IMG/VR virus record: IMGVR_UViG_2571042390_000001
Strand: one strand, 5' to 3'
Source: a virus
Lineage: Duplodnaviria; Heunggongvirae; Uroviricota; Caudoviricetes
DNA: 64,000 bases
Positions within the stretch are counted from its first letter, which is position 1; each line of letters begins with the position of its first letter. This document shows, piece after piece, positions 3,463 to 38,987 of the stretch. The translations under genes were made by a program, and so were the position numbers. The notes beneath the pieces are model-generated. The model was not told the DNA's origin. It saw only the letters and a program-made list of their open reading frames with translations, and searched no databases.

Positions 3463-3908
3463 TGGGTAACTTTGGAAATTATTTCATTTTTATCATGGCA
3501 TTTGTTGCCATCATTGACCGTTTCATTTTTCGTCGCAAGAGTGTTGAGATTTTGAGTATTGGTGACGCTGTAGTGAAAGAATCCGCTATAGCATTTCCTG
3601 TTTCGCTACGTGTTAAGCGAAGCTGGGTCAGCAATGCTCAAATCGAATATTGGTTGCAAGACCTGAAAAATCCATCTGTGGTTATTTCAGGGAAAACGCG
3701 ACCAGTTGACGCCTCAAAACGCGGTGAGAGAGAAGAGTATTTGCTCATCGATACGAAATATCTTGAGCCAACGAAGTGGGATCTGAAAGTCACATTGACT
3801 AACGGTAACTGCCGACTGAATCCGCTTTATCGCATTTTCCCTATCAATGACTGCATAGAGCGCCAGTTTACGATCGAAAAGCGTAAAGGAGACTGGGATG
3901 TCAAATAA
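3462..3908 (+). CDS. Membrane-anchored protein (LydB/antiholin-like by position)
   Basis: 148 aa, N-terminal transmembrane segment; start overlaps upstream stop. Confidence 0.3.
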   Translation: MGNFGNYFIFIMAFVAIIDRFIFRRKSVEILSIGDAVVKESAIAFPVSLRVKRSWVSNAQIEYWLQDLKNPSVVISGKTRPVDASKRGEREEYLLIDTKYLEPTKWDLKVTLTNGNCRLNPLYRIFPINDCIERQFTIEKRKGDWDVK

Positions 3909-10835: not shown

Positions 10836-11018
10836 GGGATTTCTCCGCAGCAAAGTGGTCAACTTTTTCAATCTTAATGCGCACAATGTGCATATTCAAG
10901 TTTTATTCTTCACTTTGTTACGAGAGGGGCCAGCCAATATTTCTAGTTGAAAAGATCCATCATCAAAAATCACATACTGATTATGCTGCCGCAAACTGAA
11001 AACATTTCGCGGTGACTC

Positions 11019-14928: not shown

Positions 14929-14963
14929 TATGTTAGAAAATTAATTTGCTGTTTCTAAAACGG
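14929..14963. promoter_or_regulatory. Pair of divergent operator-like motifs upstream of the first icd/ant module
   Basis: atgttagaaaattaatttgctgtttctaaaacgg: one TGTTAGAAA and one TTTCTAAAA copy 11 bp apart. Confidence 0.5.
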
Positions 14964-16936: not shown

Positions 16937-17087
16937 ATTTTTCTCCCGGTCATGGGTTAATAAGTAGGCAAACTATGGGGAGTATGTGATTTTGACGGTA
17001 GTATCGTCCCCCTGAAAATAACATTCTCCATACCCTCTCAACCGTACCGCATAGCGGAATTTTTTACGGTTTAGAGGGGGAAATCCT

Positions 17088-20000
17088 TTGGACAAACTAC
17101 TTCATTCAATCAGTGAAGCCTCCAGCTTAGGCGAACTGATTGAAATTGTTAGTCGGTTGCATAAATTACGTGCTGTTGCGACCTTTGGCGTCAGGAAAGC
17201 CGATGGCGTCAGTATTCAGAAAACACGCCGGGCAGCAAACAATGCCGCAGTAAATCTTCTTAATTCCCTTCCGCCCGGCTTCGATGGGGCGAAATTAACT
17301 GACGAACAACGTCAGATTCTTGCTGGGTATACCGGTGAAGGCGGCCTGACAGATGGTGAGGGCAGCCAATACGAATACTACACGCCACAGTTTATGGCTG
17401 AAGGTATATGGGAGCTGTTTGCTGACTACGGTATTGATGGCGGTCACGTACTGGAACCATCAGCTGGCACGGGTATTTTCCAGGAGACAAAACGGCAGGG
17501 AATGATAATGACCAGCGCCGAGCTGTCTCCGATCTCCGGTCGAATCAACCAGCTGTTGCACCCGGAAGACGATGTGAACATTGGGGCGTTTGAGGCTCTG
17601 GCGGCGAAAGACGCAATGTATGACCACGCTGTTGGTAACGTACCGTTTGGCGAAGGCCGTTCCGGCGTTGCAGGGCTTGATCCGGCATATGCAAACGAGA
17701 AGAACGTTGGCAATTACTTTGTGCTGCGCACGATCGACAAGGTTAAACCTGGTGGGCTTATCGTATTGGTGGTGCCGAATGGCATGACTGATGGTACGAA
17801 ATACAAAAAATTGCGCGATAAAGTCAGCCGTAAAGCGGAATTTTTGGGCGCGCATCGTATGCCTTCCGGTACGTTCAGTGAATCAGGTACAGATACCGTG
17901 GTGGACGTATGGGTATTGCGTAAACACCCGGAAGCCTTCCTGGAGATGATCCCCGATACGGATGATTCGACGCTCAAATCGGCAAACGTCCTTTGGGTTA
18001 CCTTCCTCAAAGGGAAATGGTTTACAACCGAAGGGAAGCGATTTGTTTACGGCGACATGGAACGTACCAGCTTCCGCAATACCCTAGTGGTGAAAAAAGA
18101 CGGTCGTGTATCCAATGAGTCGATGAAAACCGCGCTATCTCGTCGCTTTGATAGTCGCATCAATTGGGATTTGCTCGGCGTAACTACTCAGGCATGGCAG
18201 GGCGCGAAAGTGGGCGATAAACGCCTTGTAGGCGGTATCTGGCATGAGTTTGATGGTCTGAAATGGGTTCAGGACACGACAACCAAATCCTCCGCGCTTG
18301 ATGTAAGTCGATATGGTGTTTCGACGTTTGGCGATCTGCAGATCGCGTTCCAGTCAACAAACGGGATTCTGGCTTTGTCATGGGACCAGATATCGGCGAT
18401 CGCGTCCGACTATCCATCGGTTGTCAGTGATGAAGTGGCAGCAATGATTCGCTTTGCTGGCAAGCAGCGAGAAAAAGACAGGGAGCGCGTTATGCGCGGT
18501 GCACTGATAGGTCAGTTGATCAACAAGGCACTTGATTTGCGTAACCTGGGGGTGAACGTTGATGACAAACTGGCAGATGCATCCCGCTTGGCGGCAGCAG
18601 AAGTTGCGAAGTATGGACCACCGCACGCGATTAAGCTGAATGGGCTTGCTGAAGCTGGCGCTAAAAACTGGATGACGTTCACTGGCAATGTGAAACAGGA
18701 TGGTTCCACTTCTGACCTTCTGGCAGGGCGACTTGATGTAACGGATGGTGCTGCCGGTATTGACTTTACGCGTCCTGAACAAGTGATAGCACATCTTTTT
18801 AGTGATGTAGCCCTTAATCCTATAACGCTGGGCGACTTTCGTGAGGCGTTTGCTGGTGAACTGCCAGAGGACGACGACGCGGTCCTTGAATACCTGGCGA
18901 AATTTGATGATATCGCTATTGATGGGTATGGCTGTCTGCTGCCGATGGACCGCGCCACCAGCGGCGATGTTGCAACCAAAACAGCACTGCTGGTGGGCTG
19001 GCGTGATGCGTCAACAGGTGAGCAGAAAGCGAACTTTGAGCGTCAGTTGGCGAAAATCGAAGAGAAACGCATTTTCACGCCACTAAATAAAGTCACCGTT
19101 AATCTGAATGCCCGCTGGCTGGATCGCCGCTTGATAAAAGAGTTCCTGGCAGAGCAGGGCTATGACGAGTTTAAGTACACTGAACCTGATCTGAAGGTCG
19201 TCGATGGCATTCTGGTATCTCCGGACGATTACGAAGGTAAGGACGGGGTATTTACCGGCTATCAGCTACGAACCGTAAACGGCAAAAACGGGAATGAGTT
19301 CAAGAAGGCCAACAATAAAGACGGCTTCCTGAACCAGTTAGAAAACTACCTGAACGGTGTTAAACCGCGTGGGCAGAACGCTAACGAGTACCTGGATAAA
19401 ATTGCTCAACTGGAAGTTAGCTTTAACGACTGGTTACGCACCCACCCGCAGGCGGATCAGATAGCCCGTGACTATAACGACGCATTCAATGGTTTCATTC
19501 CGTTCACACATTCTGACGCACCGCTTGGCCTGGAAGGGATTAGTGGAAAGCGCATTCCTCTGACTTATCAGAATGAAGAAGTTCGGCGCTTGTCAGAAGA
19601 TGGGCGTGGCATCATGGGATTTGGTACCGGGCTGGGTAAAACCACGACCGCGCTTGCGCTTGAGGCGTATAACTTCGAAACAGGTCGCACTAAACGCACG
19701 TGTATTGTTGTTCCGAAGGCGGTTTATCAGAACTGGTATCACGAGGCACAGAGTTTCTACAGTGCTGATGCCTTCGCCAATATGATGTTTATCGGTTTGG
19801 ATGAAGTTCGTGATGACAGCGGAAATATTCTGACCGCGCCGGTGCTTGATGAAAATGGCGAACCACGCCTCGACAGTAACGGGCAGCCTCTTACCAGAAA
19901 TGTTGTGAAAGAGTCCTCCAGCGCCGTTATCGTTCAGCGTATGAACATGATCCCGTCGTCAAATTGGCGAACGGTCATCATGACAAAAGAACAATTCGCG

Positions 20001-23000
20001 TCTATCCCGCTACGAGAAAAAACCATCGAGGAGAACTCACAGCAAGCTGTCTTTAATGCTGTGGAAATGGGGCGTCTTGACCTGGCGTCCGGTAAACACC
20101 GTGATGCGCAGAAGAAGAACAAGATTAAGGATCAGGCCGCGAATACCGGTACAACGAAGAAGCAGAATATCCCTTACTTTGAGGATATGAACTTCGATAG
20201 CGTGATTGCCGACGAGGGGCATAACTACCGCAACTCCTTTAATGCCGGGCGTGAAGCGGGACAACTGGCATATTTGCCTAACCCGGCAGTATCCAAGATG
20301 GCCCGCGACATGGCTGTAAAAGCTGCGTACATGATGAAACGCAACAACGGGCGTGGTGTAGTCATGCTGACGGCAACACCGCTGGTGAACAGTCCGATTG
20401 ATGCCTTCAACATGCTGTCTACTGTCATTCCGCAGGAAGAGTGGATGCGTATGGGCATCATTACGCCTGATGATTTCGTTCGTGTGTTTGGCAAAACAGC
20501 CACAGTTCAGGTCCAGAAAATTTCCGGGGAAGTGGAAGAGAAGCAGGGGCTGGTGGGCTTCCAGAACCTTGACGGCCTGCGTGGTATTTTCCATCGTTGG
20601 ACCACTCTGAAGACTGCTGCAGATGTCGGAGCGACGGTTAAAATTCCCGACATCATCGAGAACACCTTGCAGATCCCGATGACAGGGGAGCAGGAGACTG
20701 CTTATGAAGAGCTTCGTAAGCGTGCTCAGGAGTTAAGTCGCAATGATGAGCTGACAGTCGATGAAAACGGGCATATCACTAACGACAAACCGGATGATTT
20801 CATCTTCTCCATCATCCGTGACATGGATAAGGTTGCTATAGACCCGGATCTGTATGCCAGTGCGATTACATTCCAGTTCCCCGTTGAGCTTGCAGACCAG
20901 GTAAAAGCTATTGCTGATGCCTTGCCAAAAGTAGCTGGCGGTAAAGTGGCAGATGATGTTGATGAGGCCGAGGAAGACGGCGCTGGCGGGCTGGTCAGTA
21001 CGCGTACCAGCAAGGTAGTGAAGACCGCTTTTAGTGAACATCCGACGCATGTTGAAATACGTGCCAGCATTGAACTGGAAGCTGAAATACTGAAGGCCAT
21101 TGCGGCTGCCGGCATTGATATGCAGCAGGTGTCGCACCCCATCCCGCCGAAGTATGCCGCGCTGATCGAAAATCTTCGTGAAGGTCTGAAGAACGGTAAG
21201 CAGATCGTCTTTATTGATGAAAAAGCCCAGCACCAGAAGCTGCGCCGTATTATCGCCAGTGCACTGCAAATGCCGGAGCAGGAGATTGGCATTATCAATG
21301 CGACGACAGTTAGCCAGGCTGGTGGCATCAAGCTGAAGAAGGTGAATAAGCCGACCGAACCTACTCCAAACAAAAACGGTGAATACAAAGAAGGGGCATG
21401 GGAAACCTACTACAGCAAACTTGCCCAATATGAGGATTATCTCTCCGCTAAAAATGATGCTGGCCTTGAGGGCATGGAAGGTATTGCCGCCGACTATAAC
21501 GAAGGTCGCACGCGCATCATAATCTGTAACAAGAAGGCTGAAGTAGGTATTAACCTGCACATCGGGACAACCGATATCCACCACCTGACACTACCCTGGA
21601 CACCAGCCAGTATCGACCAACGAAATGGGCGCGGTGCGCGCGTAGGTTCACCGCAAGAAAAGGTCAATGTTCACTACTATTGTGGCAAAGGCACATTCGA
21701 CGACTTCCGTCTGGATACGCTGAAACGTAAGAAAGACTGGATCAAGATGGTGATGACATCCGACATGTCAGAGATCGCCAATGGTGATGCGGATGATGCT
21801 GATGAACGCGCCATTATGCTGGCGGCAAACCCGGAAGAACGCCGCGCAATCATGGCTCGCCAGGCGCAAGAGCGTGAAGAACGTCTGAAACTGAAAGCAC
21901 AGCGCGAGGCCAACAATGCTCTCGATATCTACCTGAAAGCGGCAAACGCCGCCGGAAAAGATATCGGCATGATGGAGACAGAACTGAAAAGCGCGATGGA
22001 ACAGATAGAGTATTACCAGCGCAATCTTGACGACCTGATAAAAGCGGGTACGAACAGGAATGGGCAAAAATACGCGCTTGAGCAGTTGAGTAGCTACAGA
22101 AAACGTGCGCGGGTGCTGCGGTTTGCGATCACCAGGGCAAAAGACGCGGATACCATAATGAAACGCTCTCGTGGTGATGTGGAGCGCGCTATTAAGTCTG
22201 GTGTGCTGGATATCAGTATCGATGTTATTCAGAACCCACAGGAATATATGCGCACTGACAAGAATATCCTGTTGCATAAAGGTAGTTATTACCGTGCAGT
22301 CATTGATGATCGCGAAACAACAGCGATTGTCCGGGTGGAAAAAATTGACGGTGAAAAAGCACAATACCTCTGCCGTATCGCCTGGCTGGATAGAGCAAGT
22401 CGTTACGCTCGAGCACCGGGGTCAATCGTTACATTGCCGTTTGACTCTGTGATTGAAGCGGTAACTTTTGAAGAGGGGGTAGCTGAATCGCGCGCAACGG
22501 CTGCGCGTGGTGTTCAGTGCCACCAGCTATCAACAATACTTACTCGCGATCAGTTCTATGATGCTATTCGCAATGGGGTAATGAATGTTATTGCTGGTAA
22601 ACCTGGTAATGCATGGGGCGGTGGGTCAGCTATTAAATACTGGGCATATCGCACAGATGATGGTCAGATCGCGCTGTCATCGGCCTATGATGGCGTGATA
22701 GGCCAAAAAATCGGGCGAGCATCGGATATAGCACCTGAGCGATGGATATATCCTGATGGCAACGACGAGGCGCTGAAGCGTGAAGTGGCAAAAATACAAG
22801 CCAGTGATAACCCGCTGAATATCGTGGACGGCGAGGGATTCCTCCAGGCATTGTATGGGTATGATTACACCCAGGGAATGCAGGCATGGGGCGCACAGGC
22901 AACGATGGATGATGTTGCCCATGAGTTCGAAAACTGGATGGCTGGGCGTGGTCTGTCAGGTCGTTCGCTTAATAAAGTCACTTCTGAAGATATTCTTAGC

Positions 23001-23924
23001 TTGTTCCGCAAACCGTCCGGAGAAGGTCTGGAATCATTCTGGAGGACCGTGCTGGCATACCGTTTATTCCAGGGCAGGATGAAAGCCTTTAGCAATATCG
23101 ATGATATTGAACGGATGTTTAATCAGGTCAAGATCGCGAAAATTAAGGCGAAGATCGAAAAAACACGTTCTGCGCTGGTGGCCTGGCGCGATGCATTGTT
23201 TGAGCAATATAAATCACTCAGTGATGCAGATGGATGGGCGGCATTGGAACAGCTGGCGAATAATGGGGTAGATGGAGCGAAACTCGCCATTGTTCAGGCT
23301 GATAACCCCCTGGAATCACCGGCAGCACAGTGGATTAAGGTGGGGGCTGTCATCAATGCATTTGATGAAAAACACATTAGTAAGGACGATTTTGCTGATG
23401 CTGTTTCTGTTAATCGCCTGGTAGAAATGGCTACCCGCCGCGCCCGTGAGTTGAAAGACGGCGACTATGTGAATGAGTTGCCGGATACGCTCAAATCGGC
23501 AACGTGGCAGGACTATGTATCGCTGAAAAACGGCGGGGCCACTGAATCAGAGATCGCGGAAAGGCTTGAGCAGGCTGAAAGCAAAAGAGAAGAGCAGGCG
23601 GCAGTGGCTGAAGCCAGAGCTGATGAAGCGGCGAATGATGACTATATCATTGTGGTTAATGATAAGCCGATTCGCGCTAAGGCGCGTGTTCGCGGGCGCT
23701 GGTGGAGCGTCAGCGAGGACGTTGGCGCGGTTTATCTCATTGCCGACCAACCAGGTTCCTCGACAATACGGAACGCCAAAGACGCGATTAAGAAGATTGG
23801 CGGACGTTTCTGGAATTTTGAAGCAAACCCGGTTGCTGATGTGAACTTTGACCGTCCTGCATGGATGGTATCTACGCGTTACTCGGTAGATGAACTGCGT
23901 AAAATAATCGCCGATGCGGCCTAA
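17088..23924 (+). CDS. darB: Giant DarB-like protein: N6-adenine methyltransferase domain plus SF2 helicase domain
   Basis: 2278 aa; MTase motif I VLEPSAGTGIF and motif IV NVPFGE; helicase Walker A GFGTGLGKTTTA, DEGH box VIADEGHNYRN, later QRNGRGARVG; TTG start after RBS. Confidence 0.8.
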   Translation: MDKLLHSISEASSLGELIEIVSRLHKLRAVATFGVRKADGVSIQKTRRAANNAAVNLLNSLPPGFDGAKLTDEQRQILAGYTGEGGLTDGEGSQYEYYTPQFMAEGIWELFADYGIDGGHVLEPSAGTGIFQETKRQGMIMTSAELSPISGRINQLLHPEDDVNIGAFEALAAKDAMYDHAVGNVPFGEGRSGVAGLDPAYANEKNVGNYFVLRTIDKVKPGGLIVLVVPNGMTDGTKYKKLRDKVSRKAEFLGAHRMPSGTFSESGTDTVVDVWVLRKHPEAFLEMIPDTDDSTLKSANVLWVTFLKGKWFTTEGKRFVYGDMERTSFRNTLVVKKDGRVSNESMKTALSRRFDSRINWDLLGVTTQAWQGAKVGDKRLVGGIWHEFDGLKWVQDTTTKSSALDVSRYGVSTFGDLQIAFQSTNGILALSWDQISAIASDYPSVVSDEVAAMIRFAGKQREKDRERVMRGALIGQLINKALDLRNLGVNVDDKLADASRLAAAEVAKYGPPHAIKLNGLAEAGAKNWMTFTGNVKQDGSTSDLLAGRLDVTDGAAGIDFTRPEQVIAHLFSDVALNPITLGDFREAFAGELPEDDDAVLEYLAKFDDIAIDGYGCLLPMDRATSGDVATKTALLVGWRDASTGEQKANFERQLAKIEEKRIFTPLNKVTVNLNARWLDRRLIKEFLAEQGYDEFKYTEPDLKVVDGILVSPDDYEGKDGVFTGYQLRTVNGKNGNEFKKANNKDGFLNQLENYLNGVKPRGQNANEYLDKIAQLEVSFNDWLRTHPQADQIARDYNDAFNGFIPFTHSDAPLGLEGISGKRIPLTYQNEEVRRLSEDGRGIMGFGTGLGKTTTALALEAYNFETGRTKRTCIVVPKAVYQNWYHEAQSFYSADAFANMMFIGLDEVRDDSGNILTAPVLDENGEPRLDSNGQPLTRNVVKESSSAVIVQRMNMIPSSNWRTVIMTKEQFASIPLREKTIEENSQQAVFNAVEMGRLDLASGKHRDAQKKNKIKDQAANTGTTKKQNIPYFEDMNFDSVIADEGHNYRNSFNAGREAGQLAYLPNPAVSKMARDMAVKAAYMMKRNNGRGVVMLTATPLVNSPIDAFNMLSTVIPQEEWMRMGIITPDDFVRVFGKTATVQVQKISGEVEEKQGLVGFQNLDGLRGIFHRWTTLKTAADVGATVKIPDIIENTLQIPMTGEQETAYEELRKRAQELSRNDELTVDENGHITNDKPDDFIFSIIRDMDKVAIDPDLYASAITFQFPVELADQVKAIADALPKVAGGKVADDVDEAEEDGAGGLVSTRTSKVVKTAFSEHPTHVEIRASIELEAEILKAIAAAGIDMQQVSHPIPPKYAALIENLREGLKNGKQIVFIDEKAQHQKLRRIIASALQMPEQEIGIINATTVSQAGGIKLKKVNKPTEPTPNKNGEYKEGAWETYYSKLAQYEDYLSAKNDAGLEGMEGIAADYNEGRTRIIICNKKAEVGINLHIGTTDIHHLTLPWTPASIDQRNGRGARVGSPQEKVNVHYYCGKGTFDDFRLDTLKRKKDWIKMVMTSDMSEIANGDADDADERAIMLAANPEERRAIMARQAQEREERLKLKAQREANNALDIYLKAANAAGKDIGMMETELKSAMEQIEYYQRNLDDLIKAGTNRNGQKYALEQLSSYRKRARVLRFAITRAKDADTIMKRSRGDVERAIKSGVLDISIDVIQNPQEYMRTDKNILLHKGSYYRAVIDDRETTAIVRVEKIDGEKAQYLCRIAWLDRASRYARAPGSIVTLPFDSVIEAVTFEEGVAESRATAARGVQCHQLSTILTRDQFYDAIRNGVMNVIAGKPGNAWGGGSAIKYWAYRTDDGQIALSSAYDGVIGQKIGRASDIAPERWIYPDGNDEALKREVAKIQASDNPLNIVDGEGFLQALYGYDYTQGMQAWGAQATMDDVAHEFENWMAGRGLSGRSLNKVTSEDILSLFRKPSGEGLESFWRTVLAYRLFQGRMKAFSNIDDIERMFNQVKIAKIKAKIEKTRSALVAWRDALFEQYKSLSDADGWAALEQLANNGVDGAKLAIVQADNPLESPAAQWIKVGAVINAFDEKHISKDDFADAVSVNRLVEMATRRARELKDGDYVNELPDTLKSATWQDYVSLKNGGATESEIAERLEQAESKREEQAAVAEARADEAANDDYIIVVNDKPIRAKARVRGRWWSVSEDVGAVYLIADQPGSSTIRNAKDAIKKIGGRFWNFEANPVADVNFDRPAWMVSTRYSVDELRKIIADAA

Positions 23925-24397: not shown

Positions 24398-24658
24398 ATG
24401 CGAAAGAATCGTAGGTTTACGGTCGAAGACCTAAAGGAATATTCCATATCGAAGGGGTATATCCTTGAGTTCCACCGATACAAGAAGGTTTTTACGCTGC
24501 GAAAAGCAGAAAACCCTGCGAACTGGAGCTGGATATACTTTCCTCACACCGATGATAAGTTGGTAGAACTTGTTGATGATTTAACCTATGAAGGTTGGTT
24601 GATCGCAATCGACAAGACAATCAAAGAATTATCCGAACAGGATAAAATAACCCTTTAA
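24398..24658 (+). CDS. Hypothetical protein
   Basis: 86 aa, 2 bp after upstream stop. Confidence 0.5.
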   Translation: MRKNRRFTVEDLKEYSISKGYILEFHRYKKVFTLRKAENPANWSWIYFPHTDDKLVELVDDLTYEGWLIAIDKTIKELSEQDKITL

Positions 24659-24794
24659 AAATAACAGGTTGGGTAAATGCCATGCGATTTACCCTCCTTG
24701 TTGATTAAGGTCACTCTTTACTCTAAAAGCAAATCCGACCTGTTGCATATAGACCATCCTTGAGTAGTATCTCTCTTGTTTTACAAATCTAACG

Positions 24795-25289
24795 TTGTTG
24801 TTATTATTTCGCATATTTACTATCAATGGGTGTGTTAGAAAAATAGCGCGAAAGAGAAGGCGTCGCAGTGAATATTCTGAAACATCCCCACATGCCGCAG
24901 CTCTTAGAGAACTGGAGAAAAACCCAGATCTAATCAAAAGGAACCATGAGCATTACGAGCAGGTTCGCGTCCTGGACTGGATGTATCGCAATATGCGTTA
25001 TGTGTATGAGCATACTCACGCCACTCCAAACGGTGGCCTGCGAGGCATAAGGACGGCAATAAAAATGGTGGCAGAGGGCCAAAAGAAGGGATATCCCGAT
25101 CTTTCTATAGACCTTGCTTGTGGGGGATACCACGGAATGCGCATTGAGATGAAACATGGGAGAAATCGCCTGACTCCCGAACAACTCGTCTGGATGACTC
25201 GCCTCACAGAAGCCGGTTACTACTGCTTTGAGGCGCGCAGTGCCGCTGAAGCCATAAAAGCTATCACGGAGTATGTTTGTCTTGATTAA
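24795..25289 (+). CDS. VRR-NUC domain nuclease-like protein; start codon uncertain
   Basis: Segments EHYEQVRVLDWM, KGYPDLSIDLACGGYHGMRIEMKHG and LTPEQLVWMTRL fit the PD-(D/E)xK VRR-NUC pattern; the operator motif lies inside the annotated 5' end. Confidence 0.55.
   Translation: MLLLFRIFTINGCVRKIARKRRRRSEYSETSPHAAALRELEKNPDLIKRNHEHYEQVRVLDWMYRNMRYVYEHTHATPNGGLRGIRTAIKMVAEGQKKGYPDLSIDLACGGYHGMRIEMKHGRNRLTPEQLVWMTRLTEAGYYCFEARSAAEAIKAITEYVCLD
24831..24846. promoter_or_regulatory. Operator-like motif
   Basis: tgtgttagaaaaatag in an AT-rich stretch upstream of the VRR-NUC domain. Confidence 0.45.
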
Positions 25290-25303
25290 ACGGAGAAATC
25301 GTT

Positions 25304-25504
25304 TTGCGGTTACTTAACGTGGCAGAACTTATCCCTGCAGGAACTAATGCTATCGCTCGTCGTCGCTCATGGCAGCAGGCTCTATGTATTGAGATCTCGA
25401 AACGTATCAATGGAAGTTTTGAAGCTCGCAATATTGTTACTGGCGATAAGGTTCACATAACCCCGGAAAGTGCAAGCGCTGATGATTGGGAGTTTGTACA
25501 TTGA
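25304..25504 (+). CDS. Small DUF2829-like protein
   Basis: 66 aa; AIARRRSW and DDWEFV motifs; TTG start after RBS ggaga. Confidence 0.45.
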   Translation: MRLLNVAELIPAGTNAIARRRSWQQALCIEISKRINGSFEARNIVTGDKVHITPESASADDWEFVH

Positions 25505-25800
25505 GCAAAAAATATTATGTGAGTCTGGCGTTCGCTGACGATGCGGGGAGGACGCGGAGTATCACGTTGAGCACACCGGTTAAGGCTGTGACAGCGCCGT
25601 TAATCCGTGAAGCTCTCAGAGAGCTGGAATTGGGGGAAAACTCGGCACTGTTGTCGGTTAGTTGGTTCGGGAAAATGTCAGAGAAACAATACGTGGATGG
25701 AGTTACCCCAATAACAGTAATGAGGCTACTTTCATTGCTGCAATGGGCCATCGTACCTGTATTTATCGCGTATCTTATTTATCAGGCTGCAACACAGTAA
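25501..25800 (+). CDS. Small protein with C-terminal transmembrane helix
   Basis: About 99 aa from TTG overlapping upstream stop; C-terminus VMRLLSLLQWAIVPVFIAYLIY. Confidence 0.4.
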   Translation: MSKKYYVSLAFADDAGRTRSITLSTPVKAVTAPLIREALRELELGENSALLSVSWFGKMSEKQYVDGVTPITVMRLLSLLQWAIVPVFIAYLIYQAATQ

Positions 25801-25807
25801 TTGCATA

Positions 25808-25835
25808 AAAACCCGCCAATTAGCGGGTTTTTTGT
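25808..25835 (+). terminator. Intrinsic terminator
   Basis: acccgc-caatta-gcgggt followed by TTTTTT. Confidence 0.7.
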
Positions 25836-25872
25836 TTATTGCATCTTTCGATACTGTCATCAAACTAATAAA

Positions 25873-25890
25873 ATATGTTAGAAAAATAAT
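25873..25890. promoter_or_regulatory. Operator-like motif
   Basis: atatgttagaaaaataat, 25 bp upstream of the 402-aa gene. Confidence 0.5.
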
Positions 25891-25913
25891 TTAACAAAGT
25901 AACGGGAATAGCA

Positions 25914-27122
25914 ATGAGTCAACACACTGATACTTCTAATCTGGAAATTATCTCGACAGCAATTGAAACGCTGCGCACACAAATCGCTCTTATACAGAAA
26001 CGGAATCCGGGTGATGACCTGTCAAAGCGACTGCACGAGAGTGTCATTGCCACTACAGATAACCTGGTGGCGGAAATCAACAAGCTGCTTGATGATGGGG
26101 CAGTTGATTACAATAAGCTGGTGGATCAGTTTGAGGAATACCAACAAGCAGTTAATGATGGCTTGATCCGTTTTTCACAAGTCACAGGCGTATCAGCGAC
26201 AGTTGAAAGCCTGGGTGATGCAGTTAATCAATTTGCCGCGAATATGCGTAATGAGATCGGCAATCTGGAAGCGCGTCTTGAACAGGCAAATACACTGCGT
26301 AAATCTGCCGAAGCCGATTTGAACCGTTACAAAAAAGACTATCCGCCAAGCCTGACAAAGCGGCTGGATGTTGCGGAGAAGGATAACCGCACGCTGAAAA
26401 GAGAGCGCCGGGAACTAAAAGAGCGTTTAACCAAGCTCAATCAGCAATGCATTGATTATCAAGGCGAAGGCGTCACACTGCGTAAAAAGTTGGCTACAGC
26501 GCAGAGCATTATCGAAACATTAAAGCGAGAGTGCTCACAGCTTGGTCACGATCTGAACCGTGCTTGTGGCATGGGACAAAGACCAGAGACATTTCCACTT
26601 ATGTATGATGGAAGGGATGCCATTGCCTACATCCATGAGTATCCGCACGGCCTGGTTGCGGAAACTGGGCAGCGTGGCGAAGCACTGCTGACGGCTAATT
26701 ACCATCAACAAATCAGAACCAATCGCCTGTTAACGATGGATGTGATCCCATCGGTATGGGGAACGCCGCTTTACTATCGCCTGCCGGGCTTCGAAAAGGA
26801 CTGGAATACCGACATAGACGAATGTCTCGCAGATAAAATTATGGCGTATCTGGAGACGGATTTTCCGCGCTTATATCGCCGGATTATGGACTCTAAGGAT
26901 GCGCCAATCGATGAATTAAAAATGCGTCCGGAGACGCTGGAGGCAATCAAGCAGACGGAGTTTGATACTGTATTCAGTGTGGCCTGCATTCCAAGCTGTT
27001 TCCATGAAAGCATCCCGTTCATGCAAGGAGATCGTCGTCAGGAAATCATTGACGCTTGCCGGGTATGGGCGAACGAATGGGATAAGAAGAATGGGGGTGT
27101 AGAAGATCTTTATGGGAAATAA
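25914..27122 (+). CDS. Hypothetical protein, N-terminal coiled coil and C-terminal globular domain
   Basis: 402 aa; flanked by operator-like motifs on both sides. Confidence 0.6.
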   Translation: MSQHTDTSNLEIISTAIETLRTQIALIQKRNPGDDLSKRLHESVIATTDNLVAEINKLLDDGAVDYNKLVDQFEEYQQAVNDGLIRFSQVTGVSATVESLGDAVNQFAANMRNEIGNLEARLEQANTLRKSAEADLNRYKKDYPPSLTKRLDVAEKDNRTLKRERRELKERLTKLNQQCIDYQGEGVTLRKKLATAQSIIETLKRECSQLGHDLNRACGMGQRPETFPLMYDGRDAIAYIHEYPHGLVAETGQRGEALLTANYHQQIRTNRLLTMDVIPSVWGTPLYYRLPGFEKDWNTDIDECLADKIMAYLETDFPRLYRRIMDSKDAPIDELKMRPETLEAIKQTEFDTVFSVACIPSCFHESIPFMQGDRRQEIIDACRVWANEWDKKNGGVEDLYGK

Positions 27123-27140
27123 TGTGTTAGAAATCTAAAA
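27122..27140. promoter_or_regulatory. Operator-like motif
   Basis: atgtgttagaaatctaaaa, overlapping the stop codon of the 402-aa gene. Confidence 0.45.
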
Positions 27141-28357: not shown

Positions 28358-28432
28358 GATGGTGTAGCTCAGCGGTAGAGCAGTTGGCTGTTAACCAACT
28401 GGTCGGTGGTTCGAATCCACCCACCATCGCCA
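28358..28432 (+). tRNA. tRNA-Asn (anticodon GTT)
   Basis: 75 nt with CCA; acceptor gatggtg/caccatc, T-arm ggtgg-ttcgaat-ccacc, anticodon loop ctGTTaa. Confidence 0.85.
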
Positions 28433-28437
28433 ATTTA

Positions 28438-28524
28438 GGGGAGTTAGTCCGTAGGGGTAGCGGGGTAGACTGTAAATCTACTGTCATTGCGACTCGGGTG
28501 GTTCGACTCCATCACTCCCCACCA
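28438..28524 (+). tRNA. tRNA-Tyr (anticodon GTA), type II with long variable arm
   Basis: 87 nt with CCA; acceptor ggggagt/actcccc, anticodon arm gtaga-ctGTAaa-tctac, variable arm gtcattgcgac, T-loop ttcgact. Confidence 0.7.
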
Positions 28525-28528
28525 AATT

Positions 28529-28604
28529 GCCGGTTTAGCTCAGTTGGTAGAGCAGTCGCTTTGTAAGCGAATGGTCAGCGGTTCGATCCCGTTAACCGGC
28601 ACCA
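28529..28604 (+). tRNA. tRNA-Thr (anticodon TGT)
   Basis: 76 nt with CCA; acceptor gccggtt/aaccggc, anticodon loop ttTGTaa, T-loop ttcgatc. Confidence 0.85.
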
Positions 28605-29058
28605 ACACAACAGGTAAGAGCATTTGTAGAGTTCGACTCTCTACCGTGGGCTTTTTCCCGCGATGCGAGCCATAAATGCTCTTACCGTTGTGATGAAGTG
28701 CAGCTCTTTGAAGCAACCAGAAGATAAGCATCTGGCTTCACAACATAAACCGCAGGAACGACCAATAAACGGTAGTCCGTATGGAGAACACCCCGTTGAG
28801 GAAGAGGTCTGGCCGGAACCGTAACCGGCACTACAACGTTGAGAACACTGGCGTAACGGGGTCATATCCCAATCTACGAATAAATGTTGCGTTGCAGCGT
28901 GACAACCAGTGTTCTCAACATTGTGGTGAATGCGCAGGCTGATGCGCGAAAGACATTGCAGCTATTGCGGAAAAGAGCTGTTCGGCGGGGCAATTAAACG
29001 CCCGTGAGAGTCTGAAATAACCGCAAGCCGGAGATCAGCACCGGTCGCCACAATAACG

Positions 29059-29145
29059 GGAGAGTAGGGAGCATGGTGCTCAAGCGGTCTTGAAAACCGT
29101 CCCATTGCGCAAGCGATGATGGTTCGATTCCATTACTCTCCGCCA
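29059..29145 (+). tRNA. tRNA-Ser (anticodon TGA), type II
   Basis: 87 nt with CCA; acceptor ggagagt/actctcc, anticodon arm gcggt-ctTGAaa-accgt, T-loop ttcgatt. Confidence 0.7.
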
Positions 29146-29436
29146 GTGCAACATTAAGGGTATTTGGCTAATTAAGCGAATGCCGGAAGCAGAACCGGAT
29201 CACCAAATGCGTACAGGCGTCATCGCCGCCCAGTCAGCCAAATGCTCTTACCATTGCGGTGAATGCGGCTAAGCGCACGCGGAACAGTTAAAACAGTAAA
29301 GGTGGTCTTTTTACTGGCGTAACGAGAATCCATAAGTGATCCGGCGTTAATTGTTAACTGGTTAACGTCACCGGGAGGCGCCCGGCACCGCAACCTAACA
29401 GCAATGGCGTTTTGTCTTAAAAGGTGGCTGCAAGTG

Positions 29437-29565
29437 ATGGATTTTTGGGCGTTTGCCGATAAAAACCCGGAGTGGACATTATTGTTTCTGCTGGTGGTTG
29501 CATACGGGGTAGAGCAAGCGGCAAAAGCCTTACGCGGTTCTGGCAAAAAGCGTAAGCGTAATTAA
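29437..29565 (+). CDS. Possible small membrane peptide (42 aa)
   Basis: RBS aaggtgg then ATG; MDFWAFADKNPEWTLLFLLVVAYGVEQAAKALRGSGKKRKRN; hydrophobic core with basic tail; sits between tRNA genes. Confidence 0.25.
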   Translation: MDFWAFADKNPEWTLLFLLVVAYGVEQAAKALRGSGKKRKRN

Positions 29566-29574
29566 CAGTAATCT

Positions 29575-29650
29575 GGCCCTTTAGCTCAGTGGTTAGAGCG
29601 GGCGACTCATAATCGCACGGTCACCGGTTCAAGTCCGGTAGGGGCCACCA
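29575..29650 (+). tRNA. tRNA with CAT anticodon (Met or lysidine-modified Ile)
   Basis: 76 nt with CCA; acceptor ggccctt/aggggcc, anticodon loop ctCATaa, T-arm accgg-ttcaagt-ccggt. Confidence 0.85.
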
Positions 29651-31070: not shown

Positions 31071-31087
31071 CATTAGATATTTAGTAT

Positions 31088-31104
31088 TAATTTTCTAATA
31101 CATT
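31088..31104. promoter_or_regulatory. Operator-like motif (variant TTTCTAATA)
   Basis: aattttctaatacattc, upstream of the gene preceding pacA. Confidence 0.4.
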
Positions 31105-34467: not shown

Positions 34468-35505
34468 TTACCAGAGCTTCGCGGCGTACTGCGTTTGGGG
34501 GAATGTGTATCCGTAACGTTCTTCGATTGCTTTGCCGTATTTTTTACGAGCTTCATTCAGTTTTATGCCGGTCAGGTCGTCTCCAGAGGCCATCATTACG
34601 TCTAACAATTCCAGATCCATTTTATCCAGCCTTGCCATTGCTTCACGTGATGTACGTATCTTACGCTCAATGATATGGCGAATAGCCGGATCGGCATCCT
34701 CCAGCATCTTAGCGGATTTCTGCTTAAGGCTTTCATTGCGAATATCGATGTTCCTTAAGATGTACGACTTCGCAACGTAGCTTGGCTGGTGTTTTTCCAG
34801 GTCACGAACACGATATAAGTTAAAATCGCCGAGAAGGCTGCAAGGTACCGATTCGACGCCAGAATAAATTGTAATGCTCCGGCGCTCACCAACATTATTG
34901 ACAACGGGGATCGTTGTCTTCGGTAGTCTTGCGAAAACCAATGCGCCATGTGCGCCAACTCTAAAGCGAGAAAGGGCATTGCTGCCTTCGATGTTTGTTG
35001 TCAGCACAACATCTGTATATGCCTCTTTACGCGCCCGGTAGATCTCGCCTTCAGGCTCAGCTTCAAAGAAGCGCTGTTCTTCTTCAAGAGCACCTACGAT
35101 TTGAGAAAAAACCCTATTTTTCAGGCTTTTCTTTATGATTTTGTCGTATTTTTTGAGCAATTGTTCACGTGTAAATGTACGTGTTGTTGTAGCGCTTTGC
35201 ACAACAACATGCGTGCTTTGATTGGTGTCCTCAATGATGAATGGGATCGGAGAATATACAGACTCAACAATGTTCGACGCTTTGCCGTCGGCATCGCGGC
35301 ACATGTCAACGAAGGCTTTCCATTCAGCAAGACATTTTTCAGCTTCTTCTAATATGTTTTGGTCATGCGTTAATGCAACATGGCGGAATTCCTCGCCAGC
35401 ATAACTGGTATCATGGAAAACAGAGTTTGCGACCACCAGCTCTTTCCACCGTTCAGCGGTTTGCAGGAACCGTTTGTACTCTTTCTCGATCGACTTCTTA
35501 CTCAT
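34468..35505 (-). CDS. Putative immunity repressor (C1-like by position and operator overlap); function unverified
   Basis: 345 aa; lies between pacB and the lox-type site as c1 does in P1; an operator-like motif sits 17 bp upstream of its start. Confidence 0.35.
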   Translation of the reverse strand: MSKKSIEKEYKRFLQTAERWKELVVANSVFHDTSYAGEEFRHVALTHDQNILEEAEKCLAEWKAFVDMCRDADGKASNIVESVYSPIPFIIEDTNQSTHVVVQSATTTRTFTREQLLKKYDKIIKKSLKNRVFSQIVGALEEEQRFFEAEPEGEIYRARKEAYTDVVLTTNIEGSNALSRFRVGAHGALVFARLPKTTIPVVNNVGERRSITIYSGVESVPCSLLGDFNLYRVRDLEKHQPSYVAKSYILRNIDIRNESLKQKSAKMLEDADPAIRHIIERKIRTSREAMARLDKMDLELLDVMMASGDDLTGIKLNEARKKYGKAIEERYGYTFPQTQYAAKLW

Positions 35506-38324: not shown

Positions 38325-38987
38325 ATGGCCAGCACTTTTCAGGTGTTCCCCAAATACAAAAGCCACAGCATCATTCGGGCATCGAAAATCAAAGATATTG
38401 TTATTGTCGGCGAAGCTTATGCGCCCATTTTTGGCAGTATCGAAGTCGTTGAGCCAAAAGGAATGACGCTTCGTGTTGATGGTGTGTTCTTGGAAAAATT
38501 CCGACCGCAAATAGGAGGATATCTCGTCACTGCTGAAAATGGCTATCTGGTCTATGTGCCAGAGAAAGCATTTGAAAAATGCTATAGCCGGGTTAACGAC
38601 GCCTCCGAAAATGGGGTATCGCTCAGCATTGAAGGTCACAATGGGGTGACATTCATTACAGCCAGGGACGTAACTATTTCTGCTGGCGGTATCGCTACTC
38701 TACAAGAAGAAATCGACCTTGAAGCAGCCGACTTTTCTGACGCGCTGATGTGGCTGAAGGATGGCAAGAAAGTTGCCCGACGTGGGTGGAACGGCGAAAA
38801 CCAATTCTGCTGGCTGGTTCCCGAAGGACAGTACCCGGCACGAATGGAAGCCATTAAGGGATATTTCCCCGGCGATCTCGTTCCGTATGGTGCTTATTTC
38901 GCCTTAAAAAATGCACAAGGTGTAGTTGTTCCGTGGGTTCCTTCTGTAGGCGACTTACTGGCATGTGACTGGTTTGTGGTGGAGTGA
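38325..38987 (+). CDS. Two-domain protein with C-terminal DUF2829-like domain
   Basis: 220 aa; C-terminal FSDALMWLKDGKKVARRGWNG ... VPWVPSVGDLLACDWFVVE. Confidence 0.6.
   Translation: MASTFQVFPKYKSHSIIRASKIKDIVIVGEAYAPIFGSIEVVEPKGMTLRVDGVFLEKFRPQIGGYLVTAENGYLVYVPEKAFEKCYSRVNDASENGVSLSIEGHNGVTFITARDVTISAGGIATLQEEIDLEAADFSDALMWLKDGKKVARRGWNGENQFCWLVPEGQYPARMEAIKGYFPGDLVPYGAYFALKNAQGVVVPWVPSVGDLLACDWFVVE

Follow-up and report, generated by a model that had tools for sequence, protein, structure and literature searches.

Three tightly coupled phage genes preceded by an operator-like motif raise the question of whether the phage carries a compact defence module at this locus or a part of its own developmental programme. 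The locus occupies positions 24795-25835 of a 64,000-nucleotide stretch of DNA (hereafter the window) from the IMG/VR virus record IMGVR_UViG_2571042390_000001, which belongs to the Caudoviricetes. The original prediction, made from the letters of this DNA, described a repressor-controlled set of a VRR-NUC nuclease, a small DUF2829-like protein and a membrane protein, and likened it to a defence, exclusion or anti-defence cassette more than to a core phage function. Comparison with known genomes shows that the region is an already annotated piece of a known phage, the P1-like circular plasmid prophage D6: positions 24400-26200 of the window are 99.3% identical to Escherichia phage D6. We propose, with a probability of about 0.7, that the region is the D6 version of the pmgM / pmgR-pmgS region of phage P1, i.e., a short operon that would be repressed in the plasmid prophage and expressed on induction.

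Organization of the orf12-orf11-orf10 unit

The unit comprises three genes on the plus strand. The first gene, orf12 (24795-25289), is annotated in the D6 records as 'similar to P1 pmgM' and is assigned by profile and structure-database matches to the VRR-NUC (PD-(D/E)xK) nucleases; orf11 (25304-25504), listed in the same records as hypothetical, encodes a protein of 66 amino acids (aa); and orf10 (25501-25800), annotated as 'similar to P1 pmgR' in agreement with the homology described below, encodes a protein of 99 aa. The tight coupling of these genes is confirmed by a gap of 14 nt between orf12 and orf11, with GGAG located 8 nt 5' of the orf11 TTG, and by an overlap between the orf11 stop and the orf10 start (TTGA), with GGGAG located 8 nt upstream. 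An intrinsic-terminator-like hairpin at 24671-24694 (+; 8-bp stem with a T-rich tail, -18.2 kcal/mol, z -3.7) ends the preceding darB-ulx-orf13 operon, and the clean terminator reported earlier after orf10 is found at 25807-25832 (+; 10-bp stem with a T-run, -15.5 kcal/mol, z -3.7). The three genes are rightly regarded as one predicted transcription unit with a terminator on each side; transcription of the unit would stop at 25807-25832, and the downstream pmgS homologue would then depend on an operator and promoter of its own. An Rfam scan revealed nothing credible within the three-gene unit. TTG is the predicted start codon of all three genes, and the codons of the invariant W62-E63 pair of orf11 (TGG GAG; window 25485-25503) double as the orf10 Shine-Dalgarno sequence GGGAG, 8 nt before the orf10 TTG.

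Reconstruction of a probable C1-type operator regulon

The operator-like motif that marked this locus, TGTGTTAGAAAAATAG at 24831-24846, proved to be one of many copies in the window. Its core TGTTAGAAAAATA occurs exactly at two positions, 24833 and 25876, and with up to two mismatches at 15 positions, compared with 2.3 expected and with none of 100 shuffled sequences reaching that count. A position weight matrix (PWM) built, as was the consensus, from an alignment of 13 sites recovered 15 sites scoring at least 10 bits, vs. 2.4 in shuffles. The resulting consensus, T(A/G)TGTTAGAAA(A/T)nTAA, is approximately 17 bp long and asymmetric.

The three-gene unit is associated with two of these sites. 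The main C1-type operator, GTGTGTTAGAAAAATAGCG (24830-24848, +; 19.7 bits by the PWM), lies within codons 13-17 of the longest orf12 frame, and a second, weaker operator-like site, TTGTTTTACAAATCTAACG (24776-24794, +; 15.1 bits by the PWM), is positioned 54 bp further upstream, where it abuts TTG 24795 and aligns with TTAGAA sites, likewise operator-like, in the Enterobacter and Raoultella lineages. A separate strong C1-type operator, which contains the second exact core, is located at 25873-25891 (+; 28.4 bits), a short distance ahead of the pmgS homologue (25914-27122). Elsewhere in the window, sites were found directly upstream of the c1 homologue (35521, -; gene at 34468-35505, -), upstream of the lpa homologue (31088, inverted with respect to lpa), at a distance of about 175 bp upstream of the repL homologue (13728, also inverted), between the repL and icd/ant homologues (14931), upstream of the ref homologue (54096), after cre (36931, inverted), as a pair ahead of a tRNA cluster (27125 and 27281, +), and in three further intergenic regions. 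Comparison of the site map with the map of open reading frames (ORFs) shows sites in both orientations, several of them inverted relative to the downstream gene, and no copy of the motif ahead of the portal, lysis, darA, darB or baseplate operons.

The repressor gene of the window (34468-35505) encodes a distant homologue of C1 (21% identity over 240 aa, E 2e-8). When the D6 motif is read as its reverse complement, TTAnTTTTCTAACA, it agrees with the P1 operator ATTGCTCTAATAAATTT at about 10 of the 14 positions that align around the common core TCTAA. The P1 record places C1 operators at lpa (Olpa) and c1 (Oc1a-e). Further ones are annotated close to pmgL (O26), at ppp (Oppp) a short distance downstream of pmgM, and at pmgR-pmgS (OpmgRa/b), the last with the remark 'controls expression of pmgR and pmgS'. 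It is also established for P1 that C1 controls repL, immI, and ref. The D6 motif has two features of P1-type C1 operators, namely many dispersed asymmetric copies of about 17 bp and their placement at promoters of the immunity and early regulon. Since the sites precede the same set of genes (c1, lpa, repL, icd/ant, ref, and pmgS) that P1 controls via C1, the motif is very probably the operator of the D6 C1-type repressor, as judged from its sequence and genomic context. The repressor would bind the main copy at 24830-24848 and the weaker copy at 24776-24794, which together would bracket the promoter region, and would silence the orf12-orf10 operon in the plasmid prophage; induction would lead to its expression. 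The reconstruction yields, for D6-type phage-plasmids, a working consensus of the immunity operator and a map of its sites; these elements are common in Escherichia and Salmonella.

The same motif could in principle represent a promoter element, such as the target of an Lpa-like late activator or an extended -10 box (TGnTAGAAA), given that most copies precede a start codon by 15-40 nt and contain TGTTAGAAA, which resembles an extended -10. The orientation of the motif with respect to the downstream gene, however, goes both ways (the sites at lpa, repL, and 36931 are inverted), and the genes that carry it, c1, lpa, repL, immI, and ref, are controlled by C1 in P1 and are not late genes. Moreover, the portal, lysis, darA, darB, and baseplate operons lack the motif, and darB carries a different element, ATGTGATTT...TAGTAT, similar to the -22 box of the P1 late promoter LPpac. 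We therefore consider a promoter role of the motif very improbable, and reject its late-promoter variant on site orientations and gene set.

A search for the P1-like late -22 box (ATGTGAYTT) showed no enrichment in the window and no copy upstream of the orf12 operon. The 9-mer ATGTGATTT, followed by TAGTAT, is located upstream of darB (16984-17005, +), and the same 9-mer occurs at 10967-10975 (-), within the divergent region that precedes the portal gene; the two copies resemble the -22 box of LPpac (ATGTGACTT), and the 9-mer is not enriched across the window. These two sites are possible D6 late promoters. In two other regions, immI-like (14931-14960) and lpa (31075-31103), a second, degenerate copy lies beside the operator in inverted orientation (TTAGAAA...TTTCTAA and TTAGAAAATTAATACTAAATATCTAA, respectively), and such pairs possibly constitute bivalent operators like P1 Oc1ab. 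In a Rosenbergiella epipactidis contig (L014), a P1-type operator-like sequence, ATTGCTTTATTAA, lies at 3471-3483 between a TACAAT -10 box and the ATG of the pmgM homologue; this single site, which alone is not significant, suggests that repressor control of pmgM is conserved while the operator type differs by lineage.

Promoter candidates and the start codon of orf12

The ambiguity of the nuclease start codon, attributed earlier to an operator inside the longest reading frame, is real: the operator encodes C-V-R-K-I, which are codons 13-17 of orf12. In an alignment of 22 orf12 homologues, a conserved segment begins at residue ~29 (SPHAxAL...EHxxQV, with E52, H53, Q56, and V57 invariant) and is preceded by a basic patch, which requires a translation start upstream of ~24840. 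Ahead of the operator, TTG 24795 and TTG 24798 are the only canonical starts in frame. In the L008 lineage, which is 83% identical, the operator core is kept and the surrounding N-terminal codons have diverged.

Alignment of the upstream region between the window and four other lineages revealed a sole block that is invariant in all five, AGTAGTAT (24763-24770, +). This block is unique in the window and contains a -10-like TAGTAT (24765-24770), a candidate promoter -10 with an inferred transcription start site (TSS) at ~24777. In the Enterobacter and Raoultella relatives, the AGTAGTAT block is followed by the operator-like TTAGAA site, a Shine-Dalgarno sequence and the start codon, in that order. 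The best sigma-70-like match, TTTACA-16-TATTAT with TG before the -10 (24780-24807, +; 10 of 12 consensus matches, TSS ~24814), lies between the two operator-like sites; sigma-70-like matches in the orf12 upstream region are no more frequent than in shuffles. We favour TTG 24795 or TTG 24798 as the putative orf12 start, with transcription from the conserved TAGTAT promoter.

Three other starts were considered and rejected. GTG 24868 is preceded by a good Shine-Dalgarno sequence, yet it opens a 21-aa ORF in another frame and is not conserved in L008. ATG 24826, which would require a -1 frameshift on the operator's A-run, is unlikely, with neither a Shine-Dalgarno sequence nor other support. ATG 24981 (M63), which is called by the Prokaryotic Genome Annotation Pipeline (PGAP) in plasmid pTB423, would exclude the strongly conserved residues 29-62 with the invariant E52, H53, Q56, and V57. 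The nuclease start annotated in pTB423 is in need of correction accordingly.

The orf12 gene encodes a PmgM-type VRR-NUC nuclease

The VRR-NUC assignment, which was offered as refutable by profile searches, held in these searches. The orf12 protein matches the Pfam VRR-NUC family (PF08774) at residues 45-150 with 27.0 bits vs. the gathering threshold of 23.8 (E 5e-6), and the structure of psNUC (PDB 4QBL) at residues 55-163 with E 9e-14. Residues E52, P101-D102, E118, and K120 are invariant in the 22 homologues and aligned with 4QBL, leaving the E...PD...ExK motif intact. The protein shares 57% identity with P1 PmgM over residues 29-163, the N-terminal 28 residues being not alignable, and its gene is followed by the pmgR and pmgS homologues as expected for a PmgM orthologue. 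By sequence, orf12 is a genuine VRR-NUC nuclease and a PmgM homologue.

Among the PHROG families matched by orf12 is one named Holliday junction resolvase, and the characterized psNUC and two phage VRR-Nuc proteins are dimers that cut four-way junctions symmetrically (PMC4103454). By analogy, orf12 is a probable dimeric Holliday-junction or branch resolvase, which would trim branched replication or recombination intermediates before or during headful packaging.

The orf10 gene encodes a PmgR homologue with a predicted membrane helix

The orf10 protein is similar to P1 PmgR (31% identity over 61 aa by BLASTP, E 3e-6), matches phrog_3177 (E 2.4e-6), and is encoded directly upstream of pmgS, the position of pmgR in P1. 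A Pfam match to DUF2922 (E 0.064) was insignificant and was disregarded. The previously proposed C-terminal transmembrane helix is supported by a 19-residue Kyte-Doolittle maximum of 1.99 at residues 76-94. All D6-type PmgR proteins (97-101 aa) have such a hydrophobic C-terminal segment, with maxima of 1.75-2.29 vs. 0.88 in P1 PmgR. A single-sequence AlphaFold model of orf10 (predicted local distance difference test score, pLDDT, 73) consists of a beta-beta-alpha-beta N-terminal domain, a disordered linker, and a helix at residues 70-97. From its sequence and this model, orf10 is a PmgR homologue with an added, predicted C-terminal transmembrane helix (residues ~70-97). A P1 pmgR deletion mutant yields no infectious virions, producing tails and incomplete heads, and is complemented in trans (PMC9024508). 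By extension from P1, orf10 would serve the completion of tail-joined heads, tethered to the inner membrane by its extra helix. A predicted membrane-anchored form of PmgR, an essential but uncharacterised head-completion factor, is an oddity of the D6 type.

Several observations weigh against the view of the region as a repressed pmgM-pmgR operon. Both TTG 24795 and TTG 24798 lack a Shine-Dalgarno sequence and lie upstream of the TSS of the best sigma-70 match. In plasmids of the pTB423 type, a 1-nt deletion shortens the operator's A-run and thereby disrupts the TTG frame. For the proposed functions, a P1 CRISPR interference screen (PMC10695390) did not score pmgR as essential, contrary to the deletion study (PMC9024508), and because P1 pmgM is dispensable for plaque formation (PMC10695390, PMC9024508), the packaging-resolvase role of orf12 is only a plausible guess.

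The deletion in pTB423 (L006, NZ_CP034790.1) lies at ~1430-1470 of that sequence, corresponding to window 24839-24843, and PGAP calls there a 102-aa VRR-NUC protein from which some invariant residues are missing; a second plasmid, NZ_CP050999.1, gives the same truncated VRR-NUC match. The deletion reflects either a pseudogene or a homopolymer sequencing error.

The pmgM-pmgR interval is a variable slot

In the D6 records, the unit is preceded by the darB-like orf15 (17088-23924), the ulx-like orf14, and orf13, which lies between orf14 and orf12, and is followed by the next unit with orf9 ('similar to pmgS', 25914-27122). The order darB-ulx-orf13, pmgM-small gene-pmgR with the transmembrane helix, and pmgS recurs in elements from Escherichia, Enterobacter, Raoultella, Rosenbergiella, and Tatumella and in one metagenomic contig. 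In another related element (L015), nothing occupies the slot: the gene of a 70-aa PmgR that lacks the transmembrane helix comes directly after pmgM, and pmgS is next. In P1 the slot between pmgM and pmgR is occupied by pmgN, pmgO, pmgP, ppp, and pmgQ. The pmgM-pmgR interval appears to behave as a cargo site within a conserved pmgM-pmgR-pmgS backbone, and orf11 would be accessory cargo inserted into it.

This arrangement bears on the idea that the nuclease, the small protein, and the membrane protein jointly form a compact defence, superinfection-exclusion, or anti-defence system, in which the small protein senses a ligand, the nuclease acts as effector, and the membrane protein is their partner. 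The tight gene coupling, the conservation of the trio in several lineages, its position next to the darB-ulx anti-restriction genes, and a remote Tad2-like signal of the small protein speak for this idea. However, orf12 and orf10 have homologues in the P1 backbone, pmgM and pmgR, the latter being needed for virion completion, and the nuclease is closest to a resolvase and not to any known effector. The NCBIfam and PADLOC libraries gave zero matches for the orf12, orf11, and orf10 proteins, and no defence family of PADLOC-DB matched any of them at E <= 0.1. A three-part machine is further argued against because the orf11 slot is empty or otherwise filled in related phages, the small gene being absent from both P1 and L015, which have pmgM and pmgR. 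We judge a joint system improbable, and the earlier picture of a single three-gene machine is not upheld. Under the preferred assignment to the P1-type morphogenetic backbone, only orf11 is left as candidate anti-defence cargo, via a remote DUF2829/Tad2-like relationship.

Possible DUF2829/Tad2 kinship of orf11

The orf11 family is small and lineage-restricted, with five clusters at 90% identity and about seven representatives at 50% among 1.84 billion proteins, and all its members are 66-76 aa long. Searches with orf11 against Pfam, PDB sequence profiles, and these 1.84 billion proteins by HMMER retrieved only its own family and spurious repeat proteins. The predicted order of secondary structure elements (alpha1, beta1-beta4, short helix, beta5) agrees with the published description of Tad2, and PDB searches recovered only Tudor/SH3-like barrels and no solved Tad2 structure. 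The orf11 protein is predicted to be a small beta-barrel.

The label 'DUF2829-like' stood in part, by indirect and sub-threshold signals of remote kinship, and not by any Pfam match for the protein itself. Pfam DUF2829/Tad2-like (PF11195, threshold 25 bits) does not match the orf11 protein of the window, and one of nine family members matches it with E 0.056. Proteins encoded in the same slot of Rosenbergiella and Tatumella elements (85 aa) match this family with E 1.8e-4 and 3.7e-4 (22.4 and 21.4 bits, respectively, under the cut-off of 25), and the orf11 family aligns to the Rosenbergiella slot protein with P 4.6e-4. Direct comparison by hhalign of the narrow orf11 family with the genuine DUF2829 domain alignment gave a probability of 1%, vs. 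62% (P 7e-5, 67 columns, near full length) after the family alignment had been broadened with positional homologues. In a BFVD structure search, the best of 1232 candidates was a 66-aa DUF2829 protein of Pectobacterium phage CBB, a weak match with E 0.0099 and a template modelling (TM) score of 0.36. Overall, the balance tilts modestly toward orf11 being a remote, shortened version of the DUF2829 fold. Among the ligand contacts of SPO1 Tad2 (W25, N26, W73, and D79), only the equivalent of W25 (orf11 W23) is invariant; position 24 of orf11 is variable, the W73 region is deleted, and the equivalent of D79 is not conserved. Binding of 3' cyclic ADP-ribose (3'cADPR) in the manner of Tad2 is unlikely for orf11, judging by these residues.

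The family could still act as a minimal Tad2-type sponge for a nucleotide immune signal of Thoeris, Pycsar, or CBASS, i.e., as anti-defence cargo in an otherwise morphogenetic operon, which is compatible with the assignments of orf12 and orf10. The matches of the positional homologues, the hhalign result with the broadened family, the BFVD top match, the secondary structure order, and the alignment of the invariant W23 with Tad2 W25 all point in this direction, as does the diversity of ligand specificities within the Tad2 family (PMC12393519). On the other hand, the orf11 protein of the window has no Pfam match of its own and aligns directly at 1%, conservation does not extend to the equivalents of N26, W73, and D79, no more than about ten clusters make up the family, and the same genome already carries a full Tad2-like protein. 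We regard a functional sponge as doubtful. The more specific proposal that no known derivative of the DUF2829/Tad2 fold is smaller than the orf11 family, which would sponge an immune signalling nucleotide by a binding mode different from that of SPO1 Tad2, under direct prophage-repressor control in the pmgM-pmgR slot of D6-like phage-plasmids and beside the Dar anti-restriction genes, is rather unlikely.

The full-length protein is encoded at 38325-38987 (+). It has 220 aa, of which residues 136-219 form a clear Tad2-like/DUF2829 domain (Pfam E 1.6e-22), and corresponds to a 146-aa version in the D6 record, orf114. By its domain content, it represents a bona fide Tad2-family candidate sponge already present in the element.

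Alternatively, orf11 might be a partner or regulator of its neighbours, either a small beta-barrel that serves the PmgM nuclease as adaptor or inhibitor, or a cofactor of the membrane-anchored PmgR in assembly. It is translationally coupled to both neighbours and occurs only in lineages whose PmgR has the transmembrane helix, but this co-occurrence may stem from a single evolutionary event, orf11 shows no homology to a known nuclease inhibitor or head-completion protein, and P1 does without it; the probability of such a role is low. With orf11 viewed again as accessory cargo, the region does not overturn the understanding of P1-like phages and contains ordinary phage biology, except that this small protein may be a stripped-down relative of immune-signal sponges. 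A possible minimal Tad2-like protein is, in this respect, the second oddity of the unit besides the membrane-anchored PmgR.

The downstream tRNA cluster

Five tRNA genes (Asn, Tyr, Thr, Ser-UGA, and Met) were identified at 28358-29650 (+) by ARAGORN and Rfam, all oriented like pmgS. Only three tRNAs (Asn, Thr, and Ser) appear in the D6 records, on the opposite strand; the D6 annotation thus places the tRNAs on the wrong strand and misses two genes. The tRNAs may be controlled by C1, because the operator sites at 27125 and 27281 (+) are located upstream of the cluster. Within the cluster, at 29255-29392 (+), we observed a sub-threshold Rfam match to the gammaproteobacterial small RNA STnc100 (39 bits vs. 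the gathering threshold of 47, E 6e-6).

Comparison with known systems

Three known systems offer points of comparison with the D6 unit. The immune-signal sponges of the Tad2/DUF2829 family (PF11195) share with orf11 an N-terminal G-x-x-[VI]-A-R-x-x-W and a C-terminal A-x-D-W motif, the same predicted order of secondary structure elements, and weak profile and fold signals; orf11, however, is about 25 residues shorter, lacks the insertion between beta2 and beta3, and scores under the Pfam threshold. The stand-alone VRR-Nuc resolvases psNUC, stNUC, and saNUC (PDB 4QBL, 4QBO, and 4QBN, respectively; Pennell et al., 2014) are, like orf12, single-domain VRR-NUC proteins of similar size, and psNUC-type proteins and orf12 both keep the GYPD...ExK motif, whereas the conserved N-terminal extension with the basic patch and SPHAxAL...EHxxQV is common to orf12 and P1 PmgM and absent from psNUC.

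The closest known system is formed by the pmgL-pmgM and pmgR-pmgS units of P1 with their C1 operators (O26/Op82, Oppp/Op83, and OpmgRa/b, i.e., Op86a,b). Both phages encode homologous nucleases (57% identity) and homologous PmgR proteins (31% identity) followed by pmgS, and in both, operators of the repressor flank the promoter and belong to a dispersed C1 regulon with c1, lpa, repL, immI, and ref among its other members. At the P1 promoter PpmgR, OpmgRa covers the -35 box and OpmgRb lies downstream of the -10 box, the same layout as that of the D6 operators flanking the orf12 promoter region. The differences concern both gene content and regulatory details. In D6, pmgM and pmgR are joined in one operon, with the 66-aa orf11 in place of the absent pmgN, pmgO, pmgP, ppp, and pmgQ, and, unlike in P1, pmgR is set apart from pmgS by a terminator and a separate operator, the PmgR protein has a predicted C-terminal transmembrane helix, and one operator lies inside the nuclease reading frame. 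The operators themselves have diverged in sequence (TTAnTTTTCTAACA in D6 vs. ATTGCTCTAATAAATTT in P1), and the layout of the C1 regulon appears to have been kept between P1 and D6 despite repressors that are only 21% identical.

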